A stretch of DNA of 64,000 nucleotides, taken from contig JBBQFH010000009.1 in assembly GCA_038321865.1 (NCBI GenBank), positions 1 to 64,000 of the forward strand, read 5' to 3'. The notes below the pieces were generated by a model. The model had not been told where the DNA came from and ran no database searches. It was given only the letters and a program-made list of their open reading frames with translations. Positions 1-40,471 of the stretch are shown piece by piece (within the stretch, counting starts at the first letter, position 1; each line of letters begins with the position of its first letter). This DNA comes from Gemmatimonadales bacterium. Lineage in GTDB: Bacteria > Gemmatimonadota > Gemmatimonadetes > Gemmatimonadales > GWC2-71-9. A program made the position numbers and the translations under genes.

Positions 1-1435
1 CATCGACGGCGGTGAGGATGAACAGCGCTTCGAACATGATCGCGAAGTGGTACCAGAGCGCGGTAAGGCTCTGGCCGAAGGCACCGGCGAAGATCGTCGC
101 CATGCCGACGGCCAGGGACGGTGCGCCGCCGGTACGGGATACCAGCGACGTTTCGCCCATCTGGCTCGCGAGCGCCTGCAGCTGTGCCGGCGTCACCGCG
201 AATCCCCACCCGCGGACCGCGTCGGCGGCGCTCGCGAGGGACGGGCCCAGCGCCGCCGCCGGCGCGTTGATCGCGAAGTAGACGCCGGGCTCCAGGACCG
301 ACGCCGCGCAGAGCGCCATCACGGCGACGAACGACTCCATCAGCATGCCGCCGTAACCGATGAGGCGGGCATCGGTCTCGCGCCTGAGCATCTTGGGCGT
401 CGTGCCCGATGCCACGAGCGCGTGGAACCCGCTGATCGCGCCGCAGGCGATGGTGATGAACGCGAACGGAAACATCTTGCCGGCGAACACCGGCCCCGTG
501 CCGTCCACGAACCGGGTGAGCGCCGGCATGCGGAGCGGCGGCAGCACCACCATGATGCCGACCGCCAGCAACAGGATGGTCCCGATCTTCATGAAGGTGG
601 ACAGGTAGTCGCGGGGGCAGAGCAGCATCCAGACGGGGAGGATGCTGGCCACGAACCCGTAGCCCATCACGGCGTACGCGATGGTGGTCGCCGACCAGGT
701 GAACCAGGGCGCGAGCGCAGCCGACTGCGCCACCCACCGCCCGGCGACCAGCGCCACGAGCAGCAGCGCCACGCCCGCGAGCGAGGCCTCGAGGGTCCGG
801 CCCGGCCGCCACACCTTCATCCAGAACCCCATCATCACCGCAATCGGGATGGTGCAGATGATGGTGAACACACCCCACGGGCTGTCCTTCAGCGCGTTCA
901 CGACCACCAGCGCCAGGACCGCAAGCAGGATGATCATGATCGCCAGGACGGCGGCCATGGCGAGGTAGCCGGTGAAGGGCCCGATCTCCTCCTTCGCCAT
1001 CTGGCCGAGGGACTTCCCGTCCCGCCGCATCGAGCCGAAGAGGATGACGAAGTCCTGCACGGCCCCACCCAGCACCACGCCGAAAACGATCCAGAGGGTG
1101 CCCGGCAGGTAGCCGAACTGCGCCGCGAGCACCGGCCCGACCAGCGGGCCCGCGCCGGCGATGGCGGCGAAGTGGTGGCCGAAGAGCACCCAGCGGGTCG
1201 TCGGCACGAAGTCGCGGCCGTTGGCCAGCCGCTCGGCCGGCGTGGCGCGACTGTCGTCGAGGCCGAAGACCCGATCGGCCAGGAAGCGGCTGTAGAAGCG
1301 ATAGGCGACGAGATAGGTGCCGAGGGCAGCAAGCACCAGCCAGGCGGCGCTCACCGTCTCGCCGCGGTGAAGCGCGAGGACGCCCCAGCCGGCGGCCCCC
1401 GCGAGCGTCACCAGGGCCCAGAACAGGAAGTTCAT
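1..1435 (-). CDS. cstA: Carbon starvation protein A family peptide/pyruvate transporter (3' end runs off window)
   Basis: Manual translation from ATG at 1435: MNFLFWALVTLAGAAGWGVLALHRGETVSAAWLV...TPAERLANGRDFVPT...LFGHHFAAIAGAGPLVGPVLAAQFGYLPG, the CstA signature. Missing from the ORF track because there is no stop in the window. Confidence 0.93.
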   Translation of the reverse strand, partial: MNFLFWALVTLAGAAGWGVLALHRGETVSAAWLVLAALGTYLVAYRFYSRFLADRVFGLDDSRATPAERLANGRDFVPTTRWVLFGHHFAAIAGAGPLVGPVLAAQFGYLPGTLWIVFGVVLGGAVQDFVILFGSMRRDGKSLGQMAKEEIGPFTGYLAMAAVLAIMIILLAVLALVVVNALKDSPWGVFTIICTIPIAVMMGFWMKVWRPGRTLEASLAGVALLLVALVAGRWVAQSAALAPWFTWSATTIAYAVMGYGFVASILPVWMLLCPRDYLSTFMKIGTILLLAVGIMVVLPPLRMPALTRFVDGTGPVFAGKMFPFAFITIACGAISGFHALVASGTTPKMLRRETDARLIGYGGMLMESFVAVMALCAASVLEPGVYFAINAPAAALGPSLASAADAVRGWGFAVTPAQLQALASQMGETSLVSRTGGAPSLAVGMATIFAGAFGQSLTALWYHFAIMFEALFILTAVD

Positions 1436-1441
1436 GGCCCT

Positions 1442-1447
1442 AATCTA
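1442..1447 (-). promoter_or_regulatory. -10 element TAGATT 6 nt upstream of cstA ATG (leaderless-type)
   Basis: Minus strand reads TAGATT-agggcc-ATG with no SD sequence. Confidence 0.5.
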
Positions 1448-1494
1448 CGGCCGTTCTTGCTCTTGCCCAGAGTCGTCCGTACGTTCAAGCCTCC

Positions 1495-2355
1495 ATGCCA
1501 TTCTCGAGTTTCGGGCAGAAGCCCTCCTGGGGGGACGACGCGCCGCGCAAGTCGGGCGCGCACGTCGTCGAACCCAAGCCGCAGGCGATCCCCAGGGGAT
1601 TCCGCGACAAGGCCGTCATCGTCACCGGCGGCGCCACCGGGCTCGGCCGAAGCATCGCGCTGGAGTTCGGCCGGCTGGGGTGCAGCGTCGCGTTCTGCTA
1701 TGTGAGCATGGAAGGCCGCGACGTCGTCGAGCAGGCCCTCCTCACCGAAACGGCGATTTCGGCGATGGGCGTGGCGGTGTTCGCCGCGCCCTGCGATGTG
1801 CGGGACCGCGTGGCGGTGGAGCGCTTCGTGGCGGAGACGAAGGCGCGGCTCGGCGCGGTGCACTTCCTGATCAACAATGCCGGCGTCGCCAGCGACGGGG
1901 CCCTCTGGCGCCTCAGCGAAGAGGCCTGGAACAAGGTCATCGACACCAACGTCACCGGCACCTACAACTGCATCCGCGCGGTGGCCCCAGAGTTCCGGGC
2001 CCAGCATTACGGCAAGATCGTCAACGTGGGCGCGCACCAGGCGGAGCGCCCCGGCTTCGGGGTGTGCAATTACGCCACGAGCAAGGCGGCGCTCATGGGG
2101 CTGACCCGCTCGGCCGCGGTGGAGCTCGGGCCCTCGAACGTCAACGTGAACGCGGTGGCGCCCGGGTTCATCCGCACCGAACGGATGGGCATGCTGCCGC
2201 CCGAGGTGATCGAGCGGGCGGAGAAGAGCGCCGTGCTCGGCCGGGTGGCCGAGCCGGAAGACGTGGCGCACGTGATCTCATTCCTCTGTTCCGATGCCGC
2301 GCGCCACATTACGGGCCAGACGCTCGTGGTGGACGGCGGCCTTTCACTCGAGTAG
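1495..2355 (+). CDS. SDR family NAD(P)-dependent oxidoreductase (FabG-like)
   Basis: TGGATGLG, NNAG, YATSK, NAVAPGFI and ITGQTLVVDGG motifs. Confidence 0.9.
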   Translation: MPFSSFGQKPSWGDDAPRKSGAHVVEPKPQAIPRGFRDKAVIVTGGATGLGRSIALEFGRLGCSVAFCYVSMEGRDVVEQALLTETAISAMGVAVFAAPCDVRDRVAVERFVAETKARLGAVHFLINNAGVASDGALWRLSEEAWNKVIDTNVTGTYNCIRAVAPEFRAQHYGKIVNVGAHQAERPGFGVCNYATSKAALMGLTRSAAVELGPSNVNVNAVAPGFIRTERMGMLPPEVIERAEKSAVLGRVAEPEDVAHVISFLCSDAARHITGQTLVVDGGLSLE

Positions 2356-2358
2356 CGG

Positions 2359-2613
2359 ATGGCAACGCACAGGGAAACCAACGCGCCCGAGCGCGAGGCG
2401 CGCCTCCGGCCGGAATTCGCCGGCCAGTATCCCGGCCTCGAACCGGGGGTCTGGCTGCCGGCCGGCGGCATCGTGGAGTTCGTGCTGGCGCGCGCCCGGA
2501 CGTCGCGCCGGCCGAGCGACCCCCAGCAGCGCGAGCTCGACGCCGCGCATTTCGATTTCCGGGGCGGAGCGGGCCGGCCGGGCCCGGCGCGGACGCGGGC
2601 CACCGACCGGTGA
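2359..2613 (+). CDS. Small hypothetical protein, 84 aa (paralog 1)
   Basis: Starts 3 nt after the SDR stop; shares REARLxPEFA-YPGL-VWxPA-HFxFRGG motifs with the next ORF. Confidence 0.75.
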   Translation: MATHRETNAPEREARLRPEFAGQYPGLEPGVWLPAGGIVEFVLARARTSRRPSDPQQRELDAAHFDFRGGAGRPGPARTRATDR

Positions 2614-2855
2614 CCAACCCGATGGTGCGTGAGGCCCGCCTCAAGCCCGAGTTCGCCGCACTGTACCCGGGGCTCCAGGCGGACGTCTGGGTCCCGGCGG
2701 CGGACGCCGCGGCCCAGGTGCTGGTGATGATGCGGCGAGCGGACGCGACGTTCGAGGACCGGGTGATGAACGAGCGTCACTTCGAGTTTCGCGGCGGGCT
2801 TCCGGGGCCGCGCGGCGGAGTCCGCTCGCGCCTCGCCGACCGCGGCGGTGGGTGA
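2610..2855 (+). CDS. Small hypothetical protein, 81 aa (paralog 2)
   Basis: GTGA overlap with the previous stop (alternative ATG at 2622); MTNPMVREARLKPEFAALYPGLQADVWVPA...HFEFRGG. Buried in the tail of ORF 1434..2855. Confidence 0.75.
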   Translation: MTNPMVREARLKPEFAALYPGLQADVWVPAADAAAQVLVMMRRADATFEDRVMNERHFEFRGGLPGPRGGVRSRLADRGGG

Positions 2856-2891
2856 TTACCTTTCCGGTCTCCTATCCCAAGCAGACCTCTG

Positions 2892-3563
2892 TTGCCGAAC
2901 CACATCCCGCTCGCGATTCGCATCCTGAGGGTCACCGCGCTCTCGCTAGCCCTGGCCTGCAGCCGTGGCGCCGGGCCCGCCGGCGCGCCGACGCCCGCCG
3001 TGGCCCAGCGCCCCGATGCCGCGCACGGGCTCGCGGTGGCGCCCCTGGCGGGCCAGCCGGTATCGGTGCTTCCCATCACGATGGTCGTGGCCGACTCGTC
3101 GGTCGAAGCCGATTCGGGCTGGCGTCTGTACCGTGACCGCCGCACGGCGCTGCAGCGCACCGATTCACTGATCGCCGAGACGCTGCTGGGGAAGGGCCCC
3201 GAGGTGAAGTGGGTGCTGCCGGCCGAGCTTCGGCGCATGGCCCGGCGCGCACCGGGGATGCTGACCGATCCGGACATGATGGGCCAGGCGATGATGCGGG
3301 CGCCCAAGCTGACCCTGATTCCCGATCCACTCCGAAGCTCGCTTCGGAACCTCGTCGCCATCGCCGGCGGCCGCATGATCTTCATCCCTGCCGCGCTGGG
3401 CTTCAGCCGCGATCCGGCGGGCAGTATCCACGCCACGCTTTCACTCGTGATGGGTGACGCCCGGACCGGCAAGCTCCTCTGGCGGAGCCTGGCGGAAGGC
3501 ACCGGCGCCACGCCCGACGCGGCACTCAACGCGGCGCTGACCACCATCTTCCCGCCCGAGTGA
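2892..3563 (+). CDS. Hypothetical lipoprotein
   Basis: Hydrophobic N-terminus ending LALAC (lipobox); stops 4 nt before the next gene. Start codon uncertain (TTG). Confidence 0.65.
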   Translation: MPNHIPLAIRILRVTALSLALACSRGAGPAGAPTPAVAQRPDAAHGLAVAPLAGQPVSVLPITMVVADSSVEADSGWRLYRDRRTALQRTDSLIAETLLGKGPEVKWVLPAELRRMARRAPGMLTDPDMMGQAMMRAPKLTLIPDPLRSSLRNLVAIAGGRMIFIPAALGFSRDPAGSIHATLSLVMGDARTGKLLWRSLAEGTGATPDAALNAALTTIFPPE

Positions 3564-3567
3564 CGCC

Positions 3568-4584
3568 ATGCCGTTCGACGTGACGCTGATTCCCGGGGAC
3601 GGCATCGGCCCCGAGATCACGGCGGAGACCGTAAAGGTCCTGGAGGCGACGGGCCTCCGGTTCAACTGGGACGAGGAGCTGGCGGGAATGGCGGCCGTGG
3701 ACGCGACCGGCACGCCACTGCCCGACGCGACGGTGGAGAGCATCCGCCGCAACACGCTCGCGCTCAAGGGCCCGCTCACCACCCCGGTCGGGACCGGCTA
3801 CCGCTCGGTGAACGTGGGACTGCGAAAGGCCTTCGAGCTGTACGCGAACCTGCGGCCGGCCCGGAGCATCGTGCCCGGCGGCCGCTACGAGAACATCGAC
3901 ATCGTGCTGGTGCGGGAGAACCTCGAAGGACTCTATGTCGGGGTGGAGCATTTCGTGGCGGTGGGCAACGATCCCAAGGCGGTGGCGGAATCGCTGGCGA
4001 TCGTGACCCGGATCGGCTGCGAGCGCATCATTCGCTACGCGTTCGAGTACGCCGTGAGGCACGGCCGGAAGAAAGTCACGATCGTCCACAAGGCGAACAT
4101 CCTCAAGATGGTCAGCGGGCTCTTCCTTGAGGTGGGGAAGCAGATCGCGGCGGAGTACGAGGGCCGGATCGTCGCCAACGACATGATCGTGGACAACACG
4201 GCGATGCAGCTGGTCATGCGCCCCGAGCAGTTCGACGTGATGGTCACGACCAACATGTTCGGTGACATCCTGAGCGACGAAGTGTCCGGGCTGGTCGGCG
4301 GCCTCGGCCTCGCGCCGGGCGCCAATATCGGCACGTCGGCGGCGATCTTCGAGGCGGTACACGGGAGCGCGCCCGACATCGCGGGGAAAGGCGTGGCGAA
4401 TCCCTCGGCCCAGATCCTGGCCGCTGCGATGATGCTCGACCACCTCGGCGAGGTCGAGCGCGGCAATCGGGTGCGCGCCGCCGTGGAACAGGTGATCGTG
4501 ACCGACAACATCCGCACGCGGGACCTGGGCGGGACGGCGGGGACGCGGGAGTTCGGCGATGCCGTTGCCCGTCGGGTGGGCTGA
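3568..4584 (+). CDS. NAD-dependent isocitrate/isopropylmalate dehydrogenase family protein
   Basis: [35 protein letters not shown] and [19 protein letters not shown] motifs. Confidence 0.93.
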
Positions 4585-4873
4585 GGTCCCCTGTGCGGCC
4601 TGCGGCGAGCACATTCCCGGCCTCGCCTGGGGCGAGCTGTGCGCCGACTGCCTCAGGGCGCGCAAGCGGCGTGCAAATCGGGTCTCCAGCCTCATCTCCC
4701 TCGCGGGAACGGCGCTGACGGCGGCGTACGTCTCCTTCCGGCTTCCGGCGGTTCCGAACGCCCGCATCTACAGTGTGGTGCTGGTCGTCGCCGTCTACGT
4801 CATCCTTCGGCGGATCGCGACCCGCGTGGCCATGGAGTTTCTGCCGCGCCAGCCCCGCCCCACTCGGGAGTAA
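4559..4873 (+). CDS. Small membrane protein with N-terminal CxxC...CxxC zinc ribbon
   Basis: CAAC...CADC followed by two hydrophobic helices; fills the gap between neighbouring genes. Confidence 0.6.
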
Positions 4874-4878
4874 GACAG

Positions 4879-6276
4879 ATGGAGAGAGTCCGACACGCGG
4901 CCCTGCCCCTCGCGGCCATGCTGCTCACCAGTGCGGGCGGCCTCGCCGCCCAGACCAGTCTCACGATCTACAACGATGGCCGGGTGCTGATTCGGCGGAC
5001 GGTGCCGGTGCACGTGCCGCGCGGCGCGTCCACCCAGACCGTCACGCTCGGCGCCCTCGATCCATCGTCGCTCTTCTCGCTGGATTCGTCGGTCGTCATC
5101 CAGCGGTCTGCCTATGACGGAGCGGTCGACGAGGCCAGCGTCCTGCGCCGCTCCGTGGGCCGGCGGCTGGTATTCCGAGTCGCCCGGACCGGGCCCGGCG
5201 GCGTGGAGGCGCGCGACACGGTGAGCGCGCTGGTCCTCAGCGTCGACCCGCTGCAGCTGCAGATGCCCGACGGCCGCATCACCTTCTCGGCGCCCGGCGT
5301 GCCACTGTATCCGGCCGACCTGGTCGTCTCGGCGCCGACCGCGACGCTGGCGCTGCAGAGCGCCGGCGCGCGTGACAACCTTCGCGTCGGCTACTTCACT
5401 GAGGGCGCCCGCTGGCAGGCGAGCTATCAGGTGATCCTGGCCGGGACCGACGCCCGCGTGACCGGCGCGGCGGTGATCGGCTCGCAGTCGCTTCGGGCCG
5501 ACAGCGCGGAGATCCAGCTGCTGGCCGGGTCGGTGAGCGCGGCGGCGCCGCCGCCCGGCATCTACAACCAGGGCGCGGTCGCGCGGATGTCGATGGCCAA
5601 GGACGCCGTGCAGGAGTCGGCGTCGGAGCAGCGGGTCGGCGAGTTCCACCTGTATTCACTCCCGGAGCGACTCACGCTGCTGCCCGGCATGACTACGTCG
5701 GCGTCGATGTTCAGCCCGGCGACGGTGAAATACGAGCGGAACTACGTCGTCCGCGGCCAGCTGCCCTACTGGGGGTATCTGCCGCAGCAGCCGAACGAGG
5801 AGGATGTCCCGGTCGAAGTGAGCTACACCCTCCGCCGGCCGCGGAAGACCGACTTCGGCGACCGGCCGCTCCCCGGCGGCGTGGCGCGCCTGTTCCAGGC
5901 GGACAGCAGCGGGCGGCTCCAGCTCGTCGGCGAGGCGGCGATGGACCACACGCCGGCCGGCGAGGATCTGCGGCTGTCGGCGGGCAACGCCTTTGATTTG
6001 ACAGCCAAGCGGGTGCAGGCGACCTACACCACCCGCCGCGACAGCATCGGCGGGACGCTCCGCACCTCCGCCCTCGCGGATTACCGCGTGACGGTGACCA
6101 ATGCGACTGACAGCGCGGCGACGGTGGATGTGCTGGAGCAGCGTCGCGGTGACTGGAGCGTCATCGCCAGCTCGATCAAGCCGGAGAAGCTGTCGTCCAG
6201 CGTGACGCGATTCCGGGTGGCGGTGCCTGCCCGGGGCACGGCGCTGGTCACCTACCGCGTCCGGGTCATCTGGTGA
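4879..6276 (+). CDS. DUF4139/DUF4140-family secreted protein
   Basis: Signal peptide then SLTIYNDG; WQASY, GEFHLY, PLPGGVARLF, VGEAAMDHTP and GNAFD motifs. ATG at 4879. Confidence 0.8.
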   Translation: MERVRHAALPLAAMLLTSAGGLAAQTSLTIYNDGRVLIRRTVPVHVPRGASTQTVTLGALDPSSLFSLDSSVVIQRSAYDGAVDEASVLRRSVGRRLVFRVARTGPGGVEARDTVSALVLSVDPLQLQMPDGRITFSAPGVPLYPADLVVSAPTATLALQSAGARDNLRVGYFTEGARWQASYQVILAGTDARVTGAAVIGSQSLRADSAEIQLLAGSVSAAAPPPGIYNQGAVARMSMAKDAVQESASEQRVGEFHLYSLPERLTLLPGMTTSASMFSPATVKYERNYVVRGQLPYWGYLPQQPNEEDVPVEVSYTLRRPRKTDFGDRPLPGGVARLFQADSSGRLQLVGEAAMDHTPAGEDLRLSAGNAFDLTAKRVQATYTTRRDSIGGTLRTSALADYRVTVTNATDSAATVDVLEQRRGDWSVIASSIKPEKLSSSVTRFRVAVPARGTALVTYRVRVIW

Positions 6277-20387: not shown

Positions 20388-21139
<752 letters not shown>

Positions 21140-21140
<1 letters not shown>

Positions 21141-22129
21141 TGGGCAACACGTTCGCATTCGCGGAATCGCGCGGCGGTGCGCTGCGCACGGTGGCGTTCG
21201 AGGCGGTGACGGCGGCGCGCCGCGCGGCCGAAGTGTCAGGCGGCGGGGAAGTGCACGCGCTGGTCGTCGGGGCGCCGGGGATCGCGGGCCAGGCGGAGCA
21301 GCTCGCCCGCCACGGCGCGGATCTCATCACGGTGGTCGAGCATGCCGGGCTGGAGCGCTACAATCCCGAGTCCGTCGCGGCAACCGTCGCGGCCCGGATC
21401 GGTGCCGGCGCCTATCGCGCGGCGTTCTTCGCCGCTTCGGCGCAGGGGCGCGATCTCGCGCCGCGCGTCGCGGCCGCGCTCGGCAAGAGTCTCGCGTCGG
21501 ACGTCGTCGCCTTCGAACTGCAGGGGGAGACGTTCATCGTGCGCCACCCGGTATACGCCGGCAAGGCGATGGTGACGCTGCGGCTGACGGGTTCGCCGGC
21601 GCTCATCTCGCTCCGCCCTGGCGCGGTGGCGGCGGCGGAGGCGCGGGGCGGCGGCCGGGTAGAGCAGGCTCAACCGGCGCTCGATCCTTCGGCGGCGAAG
21701 GTGGTGGTGACGGAGCTGCTCGACCGCGGAGGGGCCAAGCTCGATCTGGGCGAGGCGCCGGTGATCGTGAGTGGCGGGCGGGGGCTTCGGGCGGCGGAGC
21801 ACTTCGCGCTGGTCGAGGCGCTTGCCGCCGCGTTCGGCAACGCCGCGGTCGGTGCGACGCGGGCCGTGACCGATGACGGCTGGCGCCCGGCGACCGATCA
21901 GATCGGACAGACGGGCCGCGTGGTGAGTCCCGACCTTTACGTCGCCGTCGGGATATCCGGCGCGGTGCAGCATCTCGCGGGCATGCGGACCGCCAAGACG
22001 ATCGTGGCCATCAACAAGGACAAGGACGCGCCGATCTTCAAGATCGCCGACTACGGCATCGTCGGGGATCTGTTCGAGATCGTGCCGCGGCTGACGGAAG
22101 AGATCCGGAAGGCAAAGGCGGGCGCCTAG
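21140..22129 (+). CDS. etfA: Electron transfer flavoprotein alpha subunit
   Basis: VSGGRGL, QIGQTG, GISGAVQHLAGM and AINKDKDAPIF motifs. Confidence 0.95.
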
Positions 22130-31585: not shown

Positions 31586-32211
31586 TTTGCCAGGGCCGCA
31601 ATGGATCGCGAGAGATTGGCCCGGGCTGGTGCCTCCCAGCGTTTCCTGAACGACGCGCTGGCGTAAATCGCCGGGCGGCCGAGGAGGGCGACGAGGACGG
31701 CTTGGCGAGCGGCCCGGAACTCGGCCTCGGGCACGAAGGCGTATTCCCGGCGAACCGCGCGTTCGTAGTCATCGAACGTCCGTGCGTCGGCCCCCAGGAC
31801 CGCCAGGTCGATATCCAGCACCAGCGCGGCGTCTCCGTCGAACGGCCTGTCCTGGTGGGCCGTGGCGAGGATCATGCGCTCGATGCGCGCGACGCGCTCG
31901 GTGGCTACACCGGCGGCATGCAGGCGACTGACGGCGAGTGCCGCACTGCGGCTCTCGTTGTCGTCCGCGCGGGGATCGTAGACGGCGTCGTGATACCACA
32001 GTGCCGCCTCGACGGCGGCGGCATCGGTGCACTGCGCCCGCACACCGTCCAGCTCCGCCAGGCACTGCCGGAGGTGGGCGAGACCGTGGTAGGCGCGTGC
32101 CGGGTCGGCCCAGGCCGCGATGAGCTCGGCGTACGCGCTGTCGCTCCCGCGGCTGGCCCCAAGGGCGCGCCAGACCGCGCGCCACCGGGTGCGGCCCGCT
32201 CCGGCGCTCAG
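31582..32211 (-). CDS. Predicted HD-superfamily metal-dependent phosphohydrolase (COG4339-like)
   Basis: RAYHGLAHL, ALWYHDAVYDP, DNESRSA, DIDLAVLG and RREY motifs. Start uncertain (CTG overlapping the upstream TGA). Confidence 0.85.
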   Translation of the reverse strand: MSAGAGRTRWRAVWRALGASRGSDSAYAELIAAWADPARAYHGLAHLRQCLAELDGVRAQCTDAAAVEAALWYHDAVYDPRADDNESRSAALAVSRLHAAGVATERVARIERMILATAHQDRPFDGDAALVLDIDLAVLGADARTFDDYERAVRREYAFVPEAEFRAARQAVLVALLGRPAIYASASFRKRWEAPARANLSRSIAALAN

Positions 32212-34802
32212 AAGCCGAAACCGGCCAGAAAGTACACCCCGGTGCGCTCCTCGCCGTCGGCGATCGTCACGCTCAGCGTGCTCACCGGCCCCTCGACATT
32301 GAACCACGCGCCCCCTCCGAAGGCCCGGTGCAGCTTGCTCGACGACTCGCCCGTCGCCCATACCCGCCCGAAGTCCGCGATCCCGTGAATGCCGAAGTTG
32401 CCCGGAACCAGCAGCCGGAGCTGGCCGAGGGTGAGTCGGAGCTCGGCGCCGCCCCAGGCGGCCGCGCTGCCGGCGAACCGTTGCTGATCGAAGCCGCGGA
32501 GGTTCGCAAACCCGCCGAGAAACGCCGATTCGAAATAGGGCGCATCGCCCCAGACCTTCTTGCCTCCCACGCGGAGTGCGAGCACCGGTTTCATCGGCGC
32601 ATTCACCCCGAAGTACGTGGCCACCTCGGCGTGCGCTTCGCCGAAGGTCGTGGCCACGTCCCAGAACGCGGGGAAGAGCGAGCCTCCGGCAGATGCCCTG
32701 ACCCCGCTCCGGGGGGCGCCGGTGTTGTCGCGCGTGTCGTAGGTGGCGTAGGCGCGAACACCCAGCTGGCCGTAATCGCCGGTGCCGCTCAGTCGGCCAC
32801 TGGACGAAATGCTGCCGGGACTCGAGGTGGTGCTGGTGAACTGGAGCGCGGGCCCGAGACGGATCTCGCCGCGGCCGATGGGAAAGGCCAGCGTCGGCTC
32901 CAGGCGGTACTGGGTGTTCTCCACCCGAAAGTAGTCGCCGTTTCCGACGCGAGCCGTTTCGTTGCCCTGCCCGTAGTAGCGGATCACGTCGAGGCCGGAG
33001 ATCTGCGCCAGGGCCACCAGGTGCGAAGCCCGGTTCTCGCGGTGAAGGTCCAGCGTCGCGGCGACCCGGGTATCGTTGGGACCGGTGCCGCGCTCGACCC
33101 ACAACGTGGTCTGATACCAGTACGGCCGCATGCGGAAGCCGTACTGGTTGACGCCGACGCTGACTCCGTAGACCAGCCCCAGGTCACTCAGGTAGCGGAA
33201 CCGCAGATCGGGCACCATCTTCGCGCCGAAATCGGGTGGGGGAATCACCGTATCCCCCCGCACAATCAGCTGCGGGCGCCGGCTGAACAGGGTGTCGGGT
33301 CCGTAGGTCAGCTCGTGCGGTCCCGCGCCCTTGTCGTAGAACCTCGTCGCGCCGCGATCGTACTCCACGGCGGAGGAATCGATCAGGGTGTTGTCGCCCT
33401 TGCCGCCGATCACCCGGACCTTCATCCCGCGCACCGCCCGCCCGCGCACCAGCGCGCTGTCATCGCCGCCGTGCAGATAGACGCGCACTTCCTGGGTTTC
33501 CCCGTTGAGGAAACGGCGGTCGAAATACGGCTGCCGGCTCCCGATCGGGCCGCCGTGATCAGGGCGGCCGTCGAGGAGGCGGACCCGCACACCGGCGCTG
33601 TCACGCTCGATCACGGCGATGTCGCGGCTGTCGGTGGCGTGGATGTCCGGCACCTTGGACAGCAGCGAATAGAGCCGGCGGGCTTCGGCGGGCAGGCCGT
33701 CGCGGCGCTGCTTCAGCACGGCCGCGATCCGCTCGCCGGTGAGCTTCCGGTACTCGGGCGGCATGCTGCGCACGCCGGAATCGATCACGGCGTCGGTGAT
33801 GCGCGTGCGGACGAAGTTGGCGATGGAGTCCCATGTCGGGCCATCGAGGCCGTTGAGCAGACCGCGATCGAGCTCACGGCCGTTGAGCGTCAGTCCCTGC
33901 AGGTTCGGATAGGTCGCGTTGAACCCGATCAGCTTCGGCGCGCCGAGCCGTGCGAGACTGGGAAAGAGCCCATCGAACCAGATATACGCCTGGTCGCGAT
34001 CGCGTGGGATCGGCACCCAGATGTGGCCGTCCCCGCGATCGAACCGTGCCCATTTCCACTGGTCCTTGTGCCGGTCCCAGTCGTTGATGAGCAAATCGAA
34101 GAGGCGAGCCGTCAGGAATGCCCGCGTGTCCACGCGATCGTCCGGACTGTCCGAGAGCTTCTTCAGCAGGTCGAGGCTGTTCCCGATCTTCATCGACCCG
34201 GCAAAGCCGGGCTTCCCATCCGGGCCGTCATTGGGAAACTCCTCGATCAGCCCGAGCGCTCCGCCGAAATCCTTCCGGAACTCGCCGAGCGCGGGATCGT
34301 CGGGCATCACGGCGTATTGGGGCGTGGCGTGCAGCACACCGAGCGCGTCGAGCATCGGGGGCACCGTGAGGGCACCGCCGGGATTCGAATGGCTCAACTG
34401 GTCGTTGACCAGGTCGGCGACGAAACCTTTCCGCAGCGTCTCGGGCAGAATGACGCGCGCATCCTTCTTGAGGGTGCGGAATACCCACTCCCGGCCGTTG
34501 GCGCTCTCGAAGCGGAGCGACTTGGTCTGCTCGCCGCCGCCCCGCTTGGTCGGCTTCAGGCCGCCGTCGAACGCCTGCAGCTCGAGGACCGCGGCGCGGA
34601 TCGGCATCTGCCAGACGCGCCGGTATTCCCGGCCGAAGAGAAGCTGATGGAAGGTGCCGGCCGCCAGCGAACTGTCGGCAACCGCCGTGACGCTGTCATG
34701 TCCCACCCGCGGAGCGGCCGGACGTGCCTGACCGCAGAGCCCGGCGGCGGTTCCGAGCATCAGGGCGGCGAAATGGGCGGAGACGGCGGACCACAGGCGC
34801 AT
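32208..34802 (-). CDS. Omp85/BamA-TamA family outer-membrane protein with a large N-terminal soluble domain
   Basis: Signal peptide; C-terminal barrel with DTRD, LRGFDQQRFAG, DFGRVW and terminal Phe; N-domain has GGGEQTKSLR, DWDRHKDQW and PRDRDQAY. Confidence 0.85.
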   Translation of the reverse strand: MRLWSAVSAHFAALMLGTAAGLCGQARPAAPRVGHDSVTAVADSSLAAGTFHQLLFGREYRRVWQMPIRAAVLELQAFDGGLKPTKRGGGEQTKSLRFESANGREWVFRTLKKDARVILPETLRKGFVADLVNDQLSHSNPGGALTVPPMLDALGVLHATPQYAVMPDDPALGEFRKDFGGALGLIEEFPNDGPDGKPGFAGSMKIGNSLDLLKKLSDSPDDRVDTRAFLTARLFDLLINDWDRHKDQWKWARFDRGDGHIWVPIPRDRDQAYIWFDGLFPSLARLGAPKLIGFNATYPNLQGLTLNGRELDRGLLNGLDGPTWDSIANFVRTRITDAVIDSGVRSMPPEYRKLTGERIAAVLKQRRDGLPAEARRLYSLLSKVPDIHATDSRDIAVIERDSAGVRVRLLDGRPDHGGPIGSRQPYFDRRFLNGETQEVRVYLHGGDDSALVRGRAVRGMKVRVIGGKGDNTLIDSSAVEYDRGATRFYDKGAGPHELTYGPDTLFSRRPQLIVRGDTVIPPPDFGAKMVPDLRFRYLSDLGLVYGVSVGVNQYGFRMRPYWYQTTLWVERGTGPNDTRVAATLDLHRENRASHLVALAQISGLDVIRYYGQGNETARVGNGDYFRVENTQYRLEPTLAFPIGRGEIRLGPALQFTSTTSSPGSISSSGRLSGTGDYGQLGVRAYATYDTRDNTGAPRSGVRASAGGSLFPAFWDVATTFGEAHAEVATYFGVNAPMKPVLALRVGGKKVWGDAPYFESAFLGGFANLRGFDQQRFAGSAAAWGGAELRLTLGQLRLLVPGNFGIHGIADFGRVWATGESSSKLHRAFGGGAWFNVEGPVSTLSVTIADGEERTGVYFLAGFGF

Positions 34803-34810
34803 GCGTCCCT

Positions 34811-35971
34811 CTATTTCAGGTAGGCGGCGTAGGTTTCGGTGATGACGCCCTTGGCGTCCACCGTTTCCACGCCGAGTCGAACCTGCTTGTCCTTCAGCAC
34901 GTCCAGCCGCATGAAGCCGGGGAGCGCCGCCGCATATTGGGTCCGCGGGGTGTAGTGCACGCCATCCTCGTGGTTGATCGTGCCGGCGCCGCTGACCAGC
35001 AGGTGCCTCGCCGTCTTGCCCTCGAGGACCTGCAGGCCGTGGTCATGTCCCGAGACGTAGACCAGCGGCTTTCGCACCGCGAAGACCAGCTCCATGGCCC
35101 GCCGCATCCGCTCGTTTTTCGGACCGGCGATATCCTGGTCGGAGGCACCCTGTTGGCGATTGAGGGCGTAGTAGGACCCGATGATCGGGAGCGGGATCCA
35201 CAGCCACGGCCTGAGCGCCCGTAACGGGAACAGATGCGCCTGCCACGGCATGTACCCGCCATGGGGTCCGCCGGACGCGAGCGGGTGGTGGCCCGCGACG
35301 ACGACGGTCCGGTCGTCGGCGGTGAGCAGTTGGCGGTTGAGCGAGTTGACCACCGACGCCGGCGTATAGTTCGGACACGTCGACGTGGAGTCACGCGGCC
35401 GGGTGTAATCGTGCAGCCACCACTGCGTGTCGAGCATGACGAGCCGGAGGTGCGGACTCGGATCCACATATTCGGGGCCTGGACAGCCGCCATGGGGTAC
35501 CATTCGGGCGTAGGGCGCGCCCTTGGCCGCGATGTAGTCGGCCTGGCGCTTGATCGCGTCCCAGCCGCTCTGCCCCATGTATGACCAGTCGTGATTTCCC
35601 GGGATGAAGTAGGTCTCCGTGCGCGTCTGAACGGCGACCGCGATCTGGGCGTCGATCCGCCGCTCGGCGTCGCCGCGGCCGACGCCGCCGGTGTCGGGCA
35701 TGCCGCGGAGGTAGATGTTGTCGCCCAGGAACACGATGATCCGCTTCCCGGGTGTGGCCTCGACCTGCTTGACCAGCGCAACGAAGACCGGCTCATCCTT
35801 GGTCGGCGCACCGGCATCGCCGATGAGAAAGAGGGTGCTCTCGACCAGACCGGGCGCCGCCGAGACGATGGGTGGGGTGATGTCGCCGGTGGCCGTGACC
35901 GGTGGTCCGTACCGGGCACAGGCGACGGCGACAGGGATGGCGGCCGCGACGAGAAGGATACGACGTCTCAT
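34811..35971 (-). CDS. Metallophosphoesterase lipoprotein
   Basis: MRRRILLV...AVAC lipobox; IGDAG, LGDNIY, PGNHDW, GHHP and SGHDH motifs; ATGA overlap with upstream gene. Confidence 0.9.
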   Translation of the reverse strand: MRRRILLVAAAIPVAVACARYGPPVTATGDITPPIVSAAPGLVESTLFLIGDAGAPTKDEPVFVALVKQVEATPGKRIIVFLGDNIYLRGMPDTGGVGRGDAERRIDAQIAVAVQTRTETYFIPGNHDWSYMGQSGWDAIKRQADYIAAKGAPYARMVPHGGCPGPEYVDPSPHLRLVMLDTQWWLHDYTRPRDSTSTCPNYTPASVVNSLNRQLLTADDRTVVVAGHHPLASGGPHGGYMPWQAHLFPLRALRPWLWIPLPIIGSYYALNRQQGASDQDIAGPKNERMRRAMELVFAVRKPLVYVSGHDHGLQVLEGKTARHLLVSGAGTINHEDGVHYTPRTQYAAALPGFMRLDVLKDKQVRLGVETVDAKGVITETYAAYLK

Positions 35972-36873
35972 GGGAATGGGCGGGAATAGACGGTGATGAG
36001 GGGACGGTCCCCCCCGGCCTCGTCCGCCACGATCAGGCGGCCGTCGGGGGTGATCGCTGCACCTTCTGGCTGACGGTGGCTGCCGGGGATGTTGCCGACC
36101 CGAAGCAGCGCGCCCTCCGGCGAGAGCTCGACCAGCCCCGACTGGAGCGACGACATCACCAGAAAATGGCCGGTCCGCTGGTCGCGGGTGATCTCGGACG
36201 CCTCGAACCGCTTCCAGTGCCCGCCGGCGGCGCGGAGCTGCTCGATCGGGATGACCAGCGGTGTCGGCGAGGGCGGCGGGGAGCCCGGCAGGCCCCATCG
36301 GTAAATCACCAGCGCGTCCTGCGGCGCCCCCGCATACACGTGCTTGCAGGCCAGCAGCATCGCGTGCGTGGCCGGATCGAATACCATGCCCTCGAACTCG
36401 CACGCCTTGCGCAGCTTCGTGTCGTACTCGTTGTAGGGCACCGCCTTGCCCGCGCCCCCTTCGCTGCCCTCGTAAATCCGCCCCTTGCTGTCGAGCAGGT
36501 AGACCTGGGCGCCCACCACGGCGATCGCCTCGAAGTCGGCGGTGAGGGCCTCTTCGCCGAGCATGAAGGTCTTCATGATCACGCCGCGCCGGTAGTCGAT
36601 TTCCCAGATCTCGCTCGTCTCGTCGCCGTGCGCGAGCAGCCGGCCGTCCACGGTCAGCGCGAGCCCGGAGATTTCCTTGAACCTGGGCGGCAGGATCCAG
36701 CGGGCGATCGGCTCCGCGGCGGGCTTCCCCTGCGCCACGGCCGCGTCCGCGGCGGCCGCGCGGGCGTTCACCGCGCGAAGCCGTTGCTCCAGCTGCGCGC
36801 GCTGTTCCTGCGGACCGGGCACCGGTGAACAACCGAGCAGGAGCAGGGTGGCCGCGGCTCTCCACCCGATCAT
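35968..36873 (-). CDS. SdiA-regulated (YjiK-like) beta-propeller lipoprotein
   Basis: LLGC lipobox; blade repeats EISGL, DFEAIA, EFEGM and QPEGAA. Confidence 0.75.
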   Translation of the reverse strand: MIGWRAAATLLLLGCSPVPGPQEQRAQLEQRLRAVNARAAAADAAVAQGKPAAEPIARWILPPRFKEISGLALTVDGRLLAHGDETSEIWEIDYRRGVIMKTFMLGEEALTADFEAIAVVGAQVYLLDSKGRIYEGSEGGAGKAVPYNEYDTKLRKACEFEGMVFDPATHAMLLACKHVYAGAPQDALVIYRWGLPGSPPPSPTPLVIPIEQLRAAGGHWKRFEASEITRDQRTGHFLVMSSLQSGLVELSPEGALLRVGNIPGSHRQPEGAAITPDGRLIVADEAGGDRPLITVYSRPFP

Positions 36874-37976
36874 GCGGGCGGCTTTTCCTTGTCCAGCTCC
36901 TGGCTCACCTCGAACTCGGCGCCCAGGATGGAATCTTTCCCGCTGGACATCACCGCATGGAGCACATCATCCTGTGACGGGTTTTTCCGGAGGCGGACAA
37001 GGTAGTACAGCATGGCCGGCTTGCCTTCGGCCTCGACCACGTCGTCCAGCCGGAAGCGCTTGGTCGCCTGTTGCAGGATTGGCGTGACGCATTTCTTGGC
37101 CGCTTCGACGTCCTCCGTGCTGAGCGAAAGCACCGCGTTGTAGCGTGGCTTCTTGTTCTTCTTGCCGGGCTCGCCGGCGAGCATGTTGCGGACCCGGGCG
37201 AAGCGGTCCGCCAGCTGATCGGCCTTTTCGGGCGTGAGCGTCAGCAACAGCTCCCGGTCGGGGACCGGCGGTGTTCCATCCTTATTGTCGACCAGCGCAC
37301 CGAGCGGCTCGGACCACTGTACCTTCTGGGCGAGATCCAGCGGGCTCCGGCCGAAGTCGGTGCGCCAGACCAGGAGGATGGTGACGTTGAACACGAACGA
37401 CAGGATCGCCGCCACGGTCAGCGCCTGCACGCCCGCGGCGAGGCCGACGCCGATCGCGAGAAAGACGAATACGGTGTCCCGGTTATCCTTCAGGTTGGCC
37501 CGGAACCGGACGCCCGCCACGATGCCTGCGAGACTGAAGGCGAGGGCCAGGCTGTTGCGGACGATCAGCACCACGCCGGTAACGACGATCGGAAGGATCA
37601 GCATCGTGTGCACGATCGACTGCGCGTAGCCGGTGGTGCGCCGCGTCGCCATGTAGACCCACGAGACCGGCAACATCAGCACCAGGGATCCCAGCATGAC
37701 GGCAAAGGCGGTCAGCACCATGTAGAGCCGCGGGTTCAGCCCGCTCGAGTCCACCAGGCCAACGGCGGCAGCCCCCTTCTGCATGCCGTCGGTCAGTACC
37801 TGCGAGCCTACCGTGTCACCGATTCGCTCGCCCGAAAAGAGCAAATTGGCGGCGGGGAATACGTACAGAAGCGCAATGGTGATGCCGACGATGAAGACGT
37901 AGTAGACCAGGAGGCGCACCACCGGAGACTCCGAGCCGCCGGTGGCCACGTTCATCAGCTTGGAAAAAAACGCCAT
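36870..37976 (-). CDS. DUF4956 domain membrane protein
   Basis: SLALAFSLAGIVAGVRFR...FVFLAIGVGLAAG signature; multiple TM segments plus a soluble C-terminus. Confidence 0.8.
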   Translation of the reverse strand: MAFFSKLMNVATGGSESPVVRLLVYYVFIVGITIALLYVFPAANLLFSGERIGDTVGSQVLTDGMQKGAAAVGLVDSSGLNPRLYMVLTAFAVMLGSLVLMLPVSWVYMATRRTTGYAQSIVHTMLILPIVVTGVVLIVRNSLALAFSLAGIVAGVRFRANLKDNRDTVFVFLAIGVGLAAGVQALTVAAILSFVFNVTILLVWRTDFGRSPLDLAQKVQWSEPLGALVDNKDGTPPVPDRELLLTLTPEKADQLADRFARVRNMLAGEPGKKNKKPRYNAVLSLSTEDVEAAKKCVTPILQQATKRFRLDDVVEAEGKPAMLYYLVRLRKNPSQDDVLHAVMSSGKDSILGAEFEVSQELDKEKPPA

Positions 37977-38118: not shown

Positions 38119-39372
38119 TCAGAAGGGCGGCAATGCCTGGTGCACCGGATCGTCCAGCAGGATCGCCGGGACCATCTCCCCGACGCCGGCGTCGAACTGG
38201 CCCTCAGCCAGGATCAGCAAGGCGTTGGCCCGCACCATGGAGGTGAGGATGCCGGAGCCCTGAGGTCCGGTGAGCCGCGCCGTGAGCTCGTCGCCGTCCG
38301 CGACGACGACCGCACGGAGGAAGTGCTGCAGCCTTGGCTTCACCGCGACCGCTTCGGCGATGCGAACCATCACCGCACGGCGAAACGGGAGCGGCTGCCC
38401 GCACATCGCGCGGATGGCGGGCCGCACGAACAGCTCGAACGTCACCATGGTGCTGACCGGATTGCCGGGCAGTCCGAGCCAGGGGACATCACCCAGGAGC
38501 CCGAAGCCGACCGGCGCACCCGGCCGCATGCGGAGCTTCCAGAAGCGATGGACGACGCCGAGCTCGTCGAGCGCGGAGCGGACATAGTCGTGCTCGCCCA
38601 CGCTGATCCCCGCCGTGGACACGATCAGGTCGGCATCCCGGGCCCGCTGGAAATGCGCGCGCATGCTCTCCGGCGTGTCCCGGGCGATGCCGAGATTCCT
38701 CGGCTCCCCGCCCGCCTGCCGCACGAGGGCCAGGAGCGTGTGGGTGTTGCTGCTGGCGATCCTGCGGCCCGAGAGGATTTCGTCGGGCTGATCGATGTCC
38801 ACGATCTCGTCGCCGCTGCCCAGGATCGCGACGCGCGGCCGGCGATACACCAGCGGATGGGCTTCCGCGAGCGACGCGAGGACGCCGAGATGGGCCGCCC
38901 CCAGCGGGGTCCCGGCCGTCAGCACGGTGGTGCCGCGCCGCACATCCTCGCCGGCGTGGCGCAGGTTGGCGCCGGCGTCGCGGCCGTTGCGGATCTCGAC
39001 GAGATCCGCTCCGCCATCGGTATCCTCCTGGCGTACGACGCTGTCCGTTCCGGCCGGCAGTGGCGCGCCGGTGAAGATGCGCGCGCACTCTCCGGGTCCG
39101 ATTTCGCGGACTGGTACGTGGCCGGCGGGAATGTGCTCCACCACCCTCAGCCGGACCGGCGAGCTCCCGGAGGCAGAGCGGACATCCAGGGCGCGGGTCG
39201 CGTACCCGTCCATGGCGGAGTTGGTGCGTCCGGGGATGTCGAGGGAGCTCACCACGTCCTGCGCCAGCACGCTGTCGAGCGCATCGTCGAGCGGAACGCG
39301 GAGGGCAGGCTGGCGCCGGACGTCGCTGAGAATGCTGAGCGCCGCGTCCCGGGCGCTCAGCGGCATGGTCAC
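38119..39372 (-). CDS. moeA: Molybdopterin molybdotransferase
   Basis: NSAMDGYA, IFTGAPLP, SGDE, GLPGNPVS and QGSGILTSM motifs; GTGA overlap with mobB. Confidence 0.95.
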   Translation of the reverse strand: MTMPLSARDAALSILSDVRRQPALRVPLDDALDSVLAQDVVSSLDIPGRTNSAMDGYATRALDVRSASGSSPVRLRVVEHIPAGHVPVREIGPGECARIFTGAPLPAGTDSVVRQEDTDGGADLVEIRNGRDAGANLRHAGEDVRRGTTVLTAGTPLGAAHLGVLASLAEAHPLVYRRPRVAILGSGDEIVDIDQPDEILSGRRIASSNTHTLLALVRQAGGEPRNLGIARDTPESMRAHFQRARDADLIVSTAGISVGEHDYVRSALDELGVVHRFWKLRMRPGAPVGFGLLGDVPWLGLPGNPVSTMVTFELFVRPAIRAMCGQPLPFRRAVMVRIAEAVAVKPRLQHFLRAVVVADGDELTARLTGPQGSGILTSMVRANALLILAEGQFDAGVGEMVPAILLDDPVHQALPPF

Positions 39373-39902
39373 GACGGCAGCACCAGCGCTCCATCCCACG
39401 CGATGTTTGCGAGCAGCTGCAGCCACATGGTGTCGGTAAAGTGAAGGACCCGGCAGGACGCGCGGAAGCCGGGGTCGTCGGTGACGATGGCCAGCCAGTG
39501 CGCCGAATCGGGAGACGATTCGTCGTAGATCGGGGTCTGGGCGACACCCCGCCGGAAGACCTCGACCTTGGGGAGCGGAGCCCGGCTGAACCCCTCGGCG
39601 AGCACGATATCGGCGCCGTCGAGATAGCGCCTGGCCAGCCCGACCGGATCGTAGTCATCGGGTGTGCGCTCGAACAGCACCCGCATGTCGGGTCCCGCGA
39701 TCAGCGTCCGCTCGGCGCGGCCCTCGTGGAAGTGCCGCCAGGTGTCGCTCCCCACGCGGTCCACGTCCGCCGGGTGGTGTCCGTGCTTCAGGGTCATGAC
39801 CCGCCGGCGCCGGCGAGTGAACTCGGCGGCCAGCGCCGCGGTCAGCGTGGTCTTTCCGGTGTTCTTGCGTCCGACGATCGAGACGATTCGCGACTCCGCC
39901 AC
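39369..39902 (-). CDS. mobB: Molybdopterin-guanine dinucleotide biosynthesis protein B
   Basis: GRKNTGKTT, LKHGHH, GSDTWRH and LAEGF motifs. Confidence 0.9.
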   Translation of the reverse strand: MAESRIVSIVGRKNTGKTTLTAALAAEFTRRRRRVMTLKHGHHPADVDRVGSDTWRHFHEGRAERTLIAGPDMRVLFERTPDDYDPVGLARRYLDGADIVLAEGFSRAPLPKVEVFRRGVAQTPIYDESSPDSAHWLAIVTDDPGFRASCRVLHFTDTMWLQLLANIAWDGALVLPS

Positions 39903-40471
39903 ATCCCCTCCGCCGCGGCGAGCTCCTCCGCCGTGTTCACGTTGAAGAACAGCTCGGCCGGATCGCCGAGCAGCCGGATCGTACCGAGAGGGAGTATGTG
40001 CACGCGGACCTGCTGGTGGAAGCCGATGGCCCGAAGATCACCGGCATCGAGGCTCCGCTCCATGGCCTCGCGGCAGGCCGGCCCGTAGGCGGCACAGAGG
40101 GGCTCGACCCCCCGGCGCCCGTCGCTTTCGGGGATGCAGACGTCGGCGTCGCCGAGGCCGTCCGCCAGCGCCAGGACCAGCGGGGCGGTGACGAAGGGCA
40201 TGTCCCACGCGACGCAGACGACCGGCGCCGGAGACAGCGCGACGGCGGTGTAGAGGCCGCCGAGCGAGCCCAGGTCGGGACGCAGATCGGAGACGGTGCG
40301 GAGGCCGGGATACCAGGCGGCCGCCGCGGGGTGGTTCGCCACCAGCAGGGGAGGCGTGCCGAGGGCGTCGGTCAGGGTCCGGACCAGCCGATCGAGGATG
40401 CGCTCGCCGCCGATCGACTCGAGACCCTTGGGACGGCCGCCGAACCGGGTGGCGCCGCCACCGGCCAGCAC
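39842..40471 (-). CDS. mobA: Molybdenum cofactor guanylyltransferase
   Basis: LAGGGATRFGGRPK, GSLGGL, DMPF, EPLCAAY and FFNVNT motifs. The true start may lie a few codons upstream. Confidence 0.9.
   Translation of the reverse strand: MLAGGGATRFGGRPKGLESIGGERILDRLVRTLTDALGTPPLLVANHPAAAAWYPGLRTVSDLRPDLGSLGGLYTAVALSPAPVVCVAWDMPFVTAPLVLALADGLGDADVCIPESDGRRGVEPLCAAYGPACREAMERSLDAGDLRAIGFHQQVRVHILPLGTIRLLGDPAELFFNVNTAEELAAAEGMWRSRESSRSSDARTPERPR

Follow-up and report, generated by a model that had tools for sequence, protein, structure and literature searches.

A predicted kinase-like domain joined to an Omp85 barrel in a Gemmatimonadales bacterium, and the genes that accompany it

The analysis of a 64,000-nt stretch of DNA from a Gemmatimonadales bacterium (assembly GCA_038321865.1, contig JBBQFH010000009.1, positions 1-64,000; this whole stretch is referred to below as the window) revealed a gene, at positions 32208..34802 of the minus strand, whose translation is a protein of 864 amino acids (aa) in which a signal peptide is followed by a domain of ~350 residues, a beta-rich linker and a 16-strand Omp85 barrel. 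The ~350-residue domain is predicted to have a kinase-like fold, and is a new kinase-like family rather than a member of the CotH, HipA or PI3/4-kinase families. The gene is the last of a four-gene operon that also codes for a DUF4956 protein, a beta-propeller lipoprotein and a metallophosphatase. We propose a phosphotransferase with a kinase fold that faces the periplasm, is tethered by its barrel to the outer membrane and acts on an envelope substrate together with the three other products of the operon, a reading that we give about equal chances of being right or wrong.

Predicted fold of the N-terminal domain

Library scans of residues 30-520 returned zero Pfam, NCBIfam or PDB sequence matches. 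Database names for the relatives of the protein are limited to 'hypothetical protein' or 'BamA/TamA family outer membrane protein', and an Atlas search with the kinase-like domain recovered only unnamed 'hypothetical protein' clusters. The domain was delimited (~aa 35-382; 33657..34700, on the minus strand as are all coordinates of the operon) from structural models and matches and from its invariant residues. An AlphaFold2 (AF2) model of aa 30-450, built on a 37-row alignment, had a predicted local distance difference test (pLDDT) value of 90.1 and a predicted template modelling score (pTM) of 0.91. A full-length model (58-row alignment; pLDDT 90.0, pTM 0.86) agreed with it in secondary structure, and showed a hydrophobic N-terminal helix of low pLDDT (aa 3-24) within the predicted signal peptide (~aa 1-24; 34731..34802).

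A Foldseek search of the PDB with the model of the N-terminal domain gave 47 matches at E ≤ 1e-3, of which CotH (5jd9) was the best (E 3.4e-6), followed by CtkA, HipA, PI4KII-alpha and Fam20C. The matches listed at that threshold were almost all kinases or kinase-fold phosphotransferases, the pseudokinase domain of JAK2 among them. VIA, a structure search independent of Foldseek that covered 48,161 chains, and in which the best Z for unmatched models is usually 7-8, again placed CotH first (5jda; Z 14.4, 249 residues aligned, root-mean-square deviation (rmsd) 4.2), ahead of PI4KII-alpha (Z 14.1), CtkA (Z 12.9) and a HipA-type kinase (Z 11.1); nearly all of the 36 chains at Z ≥ 8 were kinases. 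In the model, the elements follow one another as they do in kinases: a strand, a Gly-rich loop, a second strand, a strand with R109 and a helix with D134 open the domain, and a further helix, a loop running from D241 to Q248, a beta hairpin and the segment R-D268-R-D270 come later. A preliminary description of this DNA, made from the sequence alone, had suggested an atypical kinase-like domain at this place; the predicted model, in which a bilobal kinase fold can be recognized, lends support to that suggestion.

Conserved motifs

The four motifs on which the preliminary description relied were all located in the 864-aa open reading frame (ORF): GGGEQTKSLR (aa 88-97; 34512-34541), WVFRTLKKD (aa 106-114; 34461-34487), FDLLINDWDRHKDQW (aa 235-249; 34056-34100) and IPRDRDQAY (aa 265-273; 33984-34010). 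The range given there for the domain, 33990..34560, lies inside the ORF with these motifs, except that its lower bound cuts off the last two codons of IPRDRDQAY. Together they provide a Gly-rich loop (G88-T93), the residues R109 and K113, and the motifs D241-W-D243-R-H245..Q248, a candidate catalytic loop, and R267-D268-R-D270; D134 lies between the second and the third of the four. On the model, the third strand (aa 105-110) holds R109, K113 comes next, and D134 sits on the long helix that follows.

Conservation was examined in two alignments. In the first, A2 (58 full-length relatives; mean column identity 45%), the residues R109, K113, D134, D236, D241, D243, R244, H245, D268 and D270 were invariant, and G88-G90, Q92, T93 and Q248 were conserved in at least 90% of the sequences. 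In the second, A3, made of 28 kinase-like domains from at least six lineages and including a barrel-less paralogue encoded in the same genome, D241, D243, R244, H245, Q248, D268, R269 and D270 were invariant. As judged from these alignments, the motifs are real and under selection rather than chance resemblances, since key residues in them are invariant across the 58 relatives and the 28 cross-lineage domains; the preliminary description had named a lack of conservation of the DRH and Asp motifs in homologues as grounds for giving up its proposal.

D243 and D268 occupy positions consistent, in the order of elements of the model, with the catalytic-loop Asp and the downstream metal-binding Asp (the equivalent of the DFG Asp). 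Five residues past the former, where the kinase fold has a hallmark Asn, all the A3 sequences have Gln (Q248). The preliminary description had already read this Gln as a replacement of the usual Asn, and an alignment to CtkA that pairs the two residues (E 1.5, not significant on its own) agrees with it. Its statement that PI3/4-kinase, HipA and CotH folds share a DRH..N loop needs amending for CotH, as the Bacillus cereus CotH chain reads D-G-F-V-H-N, with no literal DRH. In that chain the stretches F-D-G-F-V-H-N and I-P-W-D-Y-D, which match the two motifs considered here, lie 23 residues apart. In B. subtilis CotH, the substitutions D228Q and D251A are described as abolishing activity (PMC7821199). 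From the order and spacing of the motifs, these two residues probably correspond to D243 and D268, which are 25 residues apart. Motif order and the comparisons with CtkA and CotH thus point to D243 as the likely catalytic base and to D268 as a likely metal ligand, with Q248 probably taking the place of the metal-binding Asn.

Linker and barrel

The C-terminal barrel announced in the preliminary description (~aa 527-864; 32211..33224) was found by several means. Pfam family PF01103, which defines the Omp85 superfamily, matched aa 621-826 with 43.3 bits (cut-off 24), and NF047779 matched at E 4.2e-18 with a score under its subfamily cut-off. The model shows 16 strands between aa 527 and 863/864, and Foldseek matched them to the BamA and TamA barrels at E ~1e-11. 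The sequence LRGF (aa 768-771) lies in a long loop and the last residue is F864; a (V/I/L)RG(F/Y) motif in a long internal loop, together with a C-terminal aromatic residue, is what we take to be the motif definition of Omp85 proteins.

The preliminary description had the kinase-like domain standing in place of POTRA domains. POTRA families gave no match at E ≤ 0.1, which sets the protein apart from the POTRA-bearing BamA, TamA and TpsB types, and the region between domain and barrel (~aa 386-507; 33282..33647), where BamA and TamA have their POTRA domains, is predicted to contain beta strands and no helices. The preliminary description is therefore right on this point. The linker (aa 383-525) gave no Pfam and no PDB sequence match at E ≤ 10. 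At aa 443-477 (33372-33476, minus strand) it has two conserved turns rich in Gly and Asp, LHGGDD and IGGKGDNTLID, which by eye look like RTX-type GGxGxD calcium-binding turns.

The operon and its conserved neighbours

The four genes of the operon are arranged head to tail on the minus strand. The first (36870..37976) codes for a 368-aa inner-membrane protein of the DUF4956 family (PF16316, 36.2 bits) with an extra C-terminal domain of ~160 aa, for which no Pfam match was found at E ≤ 10; it is the single DUF4956 match in this genome, and an Atlas search with the protein returned DUF4956 clusters only. Its stop codon overlaps the start of the second gene (35968..36873), which codes for a 301-aa NHL/SdiA-regulated (YjiK-like) beta-propeller with a lipobox, LLGC (PF06977, 27.6 bits, plus an NHL repeat; among PDB chains, the TRIM71 NHL domain at E 7.6e-7). 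The stop codon of the propeller gene overlaps in turn the start of the third gene (34811..35971), that of a calcineurin-like metallophosphatase of 386 aa, predicted to be a lipoprotein (PF00149, 27.6 bits) and bearing a distant resemblance to purple acid phosphatases (PAP/TRAP chains match from E 8.6e-5 upwards). A gap of 8 nt separates the phosphatase stop codon from the ATG of the kinase-Omp85 gene. A complex prediction for the kinase-like domain and the phosphatase gave a score of 0.00 against a mark of 0.32, a result that weighs neither for nor against binding.

Conservation of the neighbours was followed by tblastn searches (E ≤ 1e-5) with the window neighbours in 80 loci, that is, 79 related loci plus the locus of the paralogue. 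The phosphatase was found in 22 of them, the propeller in 30 and the DUF4956 protein in 23. Of the related loci, 71 extend 1.5 kb or more upstream of the kinase-Omp85 gene, and in 41 of these at least one of the three partners precedes it on the same strand, with the phosphatase directly upstream of the kinase-Omp85 gene in 19, the propeller in that position in 18, and DUF4956 within 4.5 kb upstream in 16 (23 of 79 by ORF clustering). In four loci a single in-frame ORF of ~1250 aa comprises phosphatase, kinase-like domain and barrel; these belong to a Rhodothermales metagenome-assembled genome (MAG; L064), to Larkinella (L072 and L073) and to Daejeonella (L079). The pairing of the domain with the adjacent phosphatase, which the preliminary description had put forward from the window alone, gains strength from the relatives: the two are adjacent in 19 of 71 loci and fused in four. 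A further apparent fusion, in L011, was rejected, the phosphatase being in another frame than the long ORF.

Unbiased ORF clustering identified an additional neighbour: a CYTH-PPK1 protein (polyphosphate kinase) adjoins 18 of the 79 loci, in Gemmatimonadota and Ignavibacteria, mostly right after the barrel gene. It is likewise a neighbour in G042, a genome of the family to which the bacterium of the window belongs. A fusion of DUF4956 to a polyphosphate enzyme was not confirmed in the two genomes where it was sought, G040 and G042, whose long open frames showed DUF4956 alone and look like ORFs extended too far. A sample of 61 genomes from the same phylum contained DUF4956 in 12 of the 16 genomes with the kinase-Omp85 family and in 16 of the 45 without it, counts that are descriptive and not statistical, the genomes being kin to one another and not independent samples; in 9 of those 12 genomes a DUF4956 match lay within 6 kb of the family gene.

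Several other genes were seen in these surroundings. In L051, a Gemmatimonadales MAG, a protein of the propeller type (3863-5758, plus strand) is fused to a Hanks-type Ser/Thr kinase, with a hydrophobic stretch in between (Pkinase at E 7e-52 plus SdiA-regulated/NHL; the kinase part is of the cytoplasmic type). This fusion suggests the propeller to be a ligand-sensing domain. HD-domain proteins with a Pycsar-type transmembrane module (PF18967) are located near the gene in 12 of the 79 loci (for example, L073 3713-4960 and L076 12287-13201), and PAP2 phosphatases in 7 of them. A neighbour resembling TLC ATP/ADP transporters, present in five loci, was not used, its Pfam score being 19.9 against a cut-off of 21. 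In the window, an ORF just downstream of the barrel gene (31582 to ~32150, minus strand) has the H..HD-like motifs HGLAHL and WYHDAVYD and no Pfam match at E ≤ 10, and ORFs upstream of the operon (38119-40471, minus strand) were recognized by eye only as MoeA-, MobB- and MobA-like (molybdenum cofactor). None of the 80 loci gave a match at E ≤ 1e-5 to the H..HD-like ORF, to MoeA or to TerC.

Distribution of the family and a barrel-less paralogue

Of 7991 candidates scored in a search with the N-terminal 421 residues, 1322 matched at E ≤ 1e-3; among the 120 matches listed, nearly all were ~850 aa in length. When one representative of each 50%-identity cluster was searched exhaustively with HMMER, 2801 matched at E ≤ 1e-3, 1373 of them also at E ≤ 1e-30, and a one-genome-per-species scan yielded at least 604 confirmed loci. 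The 79 related loci kept for analysis come from Gemmatimonadota, Bacteroidota (Larkinella, Huijunlia, Daejeonella and Chitinophagaceae), Ignavibacteria, Chlorobi, Calditrichaceae and Rhodothermales.

The kinase-like domain occurs once more in the genome of the window, this time without a barrel (L002 1336-2541, plus strand, corresponding to G000:C5 ~20548-21753). This 401-aa paralogue is 44% identical, starts with a hydrophobic anchor and keeps the motifs GGGxQT, FRSxxK, DWDRH..Q and DRD. In L018, L024, L025, L049, L061 and L071 a second barrel match was found a few kb from the first, a hint that the kinase-Omp85 gene has been duplicated in tandem in several lineages.

Discussion

The two ends of a 16-strand Omp85 barrel are both on the periplasmic side, so that the barrel would hold the kinase-like domain on the periplasmic side of the outer membrane. 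This barrel topology, the lipoprotein-like partners, the anchored paralogue that lacks a barrel, the very large cargo of the fused proteins and the case of PlpD all point to a periplasmic domain. The preliminary description had allowed for an enzyme either tethered to or translocated by its own barrel; 'tethered' is favoured here, because of the topology of the barrel and by analogy with PlpD (PMC11116518). The kinase-like domain and the purple-acid-type phosphatase could form a write/erase pair, or carry out consecutive steps; their target would belong to the envelope, be it a protein, lipid or polymer. The phosphoryl donor would probably be tied to polyphosphate, since CYTH-PPK1 and DUF4956 are recurrent neighbours, mirroring the set of genes that accompanies CotH in Gram-positive bacteria.

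CotH (PF08757) is the nearest structural match of the predicted model. The two families have in common an I-P-x-D-x-(D/N) motif after the beta hairpin, a probable extracytoplasmic location (the periplasmic site being a deduction in the case of the kinase-Omp85 family), and gene neighbours that include DUF4956 and an enzyme that makes polyphosphate. They differ in the loop (DWDRH..Q versus D-G-F-V-H-N), in the fusion to an Omp85 barrel and in the partner, which is CYTH-PPK1 instead of a VTC polymerase; nor is there any significant sequence or profile match between them. Gram-positive pel loci are described as carrying cotH, a polyphosphate polymerase gene and a DUF4956 gene as contiguous accessory genes (bioRxiv 10.1101/768473). 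A passage on Streptococcus intermedius reports a secreted CotH, a polyphosphate polymerase and a four-transmembrane protein with an ACT domain, and less Pel-dependent aggregation in mutants in two of the three genes (PMC12345266). The kinase-Omp85 module would parallel this trio with different parts. In the window DUF4956 is in the operon; CYTH-PPK1 stands beside 18 of the 79 related loci and not here. CotH itself is rare in the phylum (2 of 61 genomes). In G011, which belongs to the same phylum but has no member of the kinase-Omp85 family, a DUF4956 gene (L085 446-1129, plus strand) is directly followed by one for a multidomain CotH protein of more than 851 aa (1129-3681, plus strand; G011:C98).

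A more specific form of our proposal would have the kinase-fold enzyme use polyphosphate instead of ATP, in a polyphosphate-fuelled phosphorylation system of the envelope. PPK1 would make polyphosphate, DUF4956 would move this polymer or a phosphoryl group through the inner membrane, the barrel-tethered enzyme would phosphorylate an outer-membrane or periplasmic substrate, and the phosphatase would remove the mark. We consider this form doubtful, with perhaps one chance in a few of being correct.

Several observations weigh against a periplasmic phosphotransferase working with these partners. The periplasm is generally regarded as free of ATP. The structural superpositions are loose (rmsd ~4 Å; query-normalised TM 0.31-0.39). 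A phmmer search of the PDB gave 0 matches; profile A1 against the PDB matched CtkA only, at E 1.5, aligning DWDRHkdqW with NFDRHNGNW of CtkA; and profile A3 found three unrelated proteins and no kinase family. Among 28 members scanned with Pfam at E ≤ 10, CotH appeared in one (E 0.0063), the window protein had no match, and the HipA and PI3_PI4 families matched none. An hhalign comparison with a 24-sequence CotH alignment covered 19 columns at probability 0.14 and E 0.41; the sole stretch aligned set IPRDRDQAF against IPWDxNxxF. Neither the Pfam model nor the CotH profile, then, places the domain in PF08757, and it is because no sequence-level test was significant that we regard it as a new family. 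In the loci, 30 of the 71 had none of the three partners upstream (tblastn, E ≤ 1e-5). The family was present in only 16 of the 61 sampled genomes of the phylum, and is therefore accessory; the kinship of those genomes further limits what the DUF4956 counts can say. In the genome of the window, PPK1 is encoded on a separate contig (C45), and VTC and CotH were not found (the assembly is 90% complete). Finally, the metal-binding Asn is always Gln, and the strand expected to bear the ATP-binding Lys bears Arg, with an invariant Lys four residues on. Replacements of such Asn and Lys residues are known from pseudokinases.

The protein might be a pseudokinase, a kinase-shaped binder without catalysis. 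Its ligand could be a nucleotide, polyphosphate or an envelope molecule bearing phosphate, for example, or else it could keep the phosphatase and propeller in place at the outer membrane. The Gln found in every A3 sequence, the Arg at the expected beta-3 Lys position, the expected lack of ATP in the periplasm and the absence of a kinase signal at the sequence level would all fit such a role. However, the catalytic-loop Asp, the Arg-His that follows it and both Asp residues of RDRD are invariant across phyla, a pattern more typical of active enzymes, and a Gln side chain is able to ligate a metal. We judge a pseudokinase unlikely.

Slightly less probable again is a lipid kinase that would phosphorylate a head group (an inositol lipid, or one of the lipid A type) in the inner leaflet of the outer membrane, the phosphatase reversing the reaction. 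PI4KII-alpha practically ties with CotH in the structure search (Z 14.1 versus 14.4), the barrel sets the domain beside a membrane, and the PAP2 genes near 7 of the 79 loci are of a lipid-phosphatase type; yet the class of substrate cannot be read from similarity of fold, and these PAP2 neighbours are few. PI4KII-alpha, CtkA and the HipA-type kinases, alike in fold, are cytoplasmic or secreted and have no barrel tether, and have the Asn that is Gln in the kinase-Omp85 family.

The enzyme-before-barrel layout also recalls the original interpretation of PlpD, the patatin-Omp85 protein of Pseudomonas aeruginosa (PMC4104836). By that token the barrel could act as in type V secretion, exporting the kinase-like domain to the surface or releasing it, with external targets and extracellular ATP, and the closest folds, CotH and CtkA, do act outside the cytoplasm (from the titles of the structures). 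The enzyme domain of PlpD was later placed in the periplasm (PMC11116518), though, and the window protein differs from PlpD in having a kinase-like fold and a beta-rich linker where PlpD has a patatin lipase and POTRA; of the three parts of a type Vd protein (patatin, POTRA and barrel) only the barrel is present, and no POTRA domain was found. Only with difficulty would a 16-strand barrel let through a cargo of ~800 aa, phosphatase plus kinase-like domain, as in the Bacteroidota and Rhodothermales fusions; the partners bear lipoprotein-type signal sequences; and a paralogue does without the barrel. Export of the domain is thus improbable. A role as an ordinary BamA/TamA-type assembly or translocation factor, the N-terminal domain merely replacing POTRA as a docking platform, agrees with the database name of the relatives and with the barrel matches to BamA and TamA, but is highly improbable, as it leaves unexplained the invariant enzyme-like residues, the barrel-less paralogue, the phosphatase fusions and the polyphosphate-linked neighbours, and the family is patchy, unlike the essential BamA.

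A full-text search of the literature found no paper on an architecture that combines Omp85 with a kinase-like domain in the outer membrane, and none of the titles listed for DUF4956 deals with it. The survey of Heinz and Lithgow (2014) includes an Omp85 subfamily with PF00149, named 'Metallo', in which PF00149 was read as a metalloprotease; the word 'kinase' is absent from its main text, supplementary tables aside (PMC4104836). The 'Metallo' architecture, PF00149 plus PF01103, is the layout that Pfam shows in the Larkinella, Daejeonella and Rhodothermales fusions, which may or may not be proteins of that survey. Unlike in that layout, the phosphatase of the window is a separate gene.

Kinase-fold enzymes are unexpected in the periplasm, and Omp85 barrels are known mainly for protein assembly and secretion; the family described here, with 2801 representatives of 50%-identity clusters, unites a predicted kinase-like fold with such a barrel. 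Cultured carriers exist (Larkinella humicola, L. punicea and Huijunlia imazamoxiresistens), and genetics and biochemistry are therefore feasible. The phosphatase, DUF4956 and polyphosphate kinase partners offer a testable handle on the role of the widespread CotH/polyphosphate polymerase/DUF4956 set, and, should the polyphosphate-fuelled system prove true, it would be the diderm counterpart of the unexplained CotH/VTC/DUF4956 trio of Gram-positive bacteria. More broadly, the family bears on whether bacteria phosphorylate reversibly in the cell envelope, and from which phosphoryl donor.

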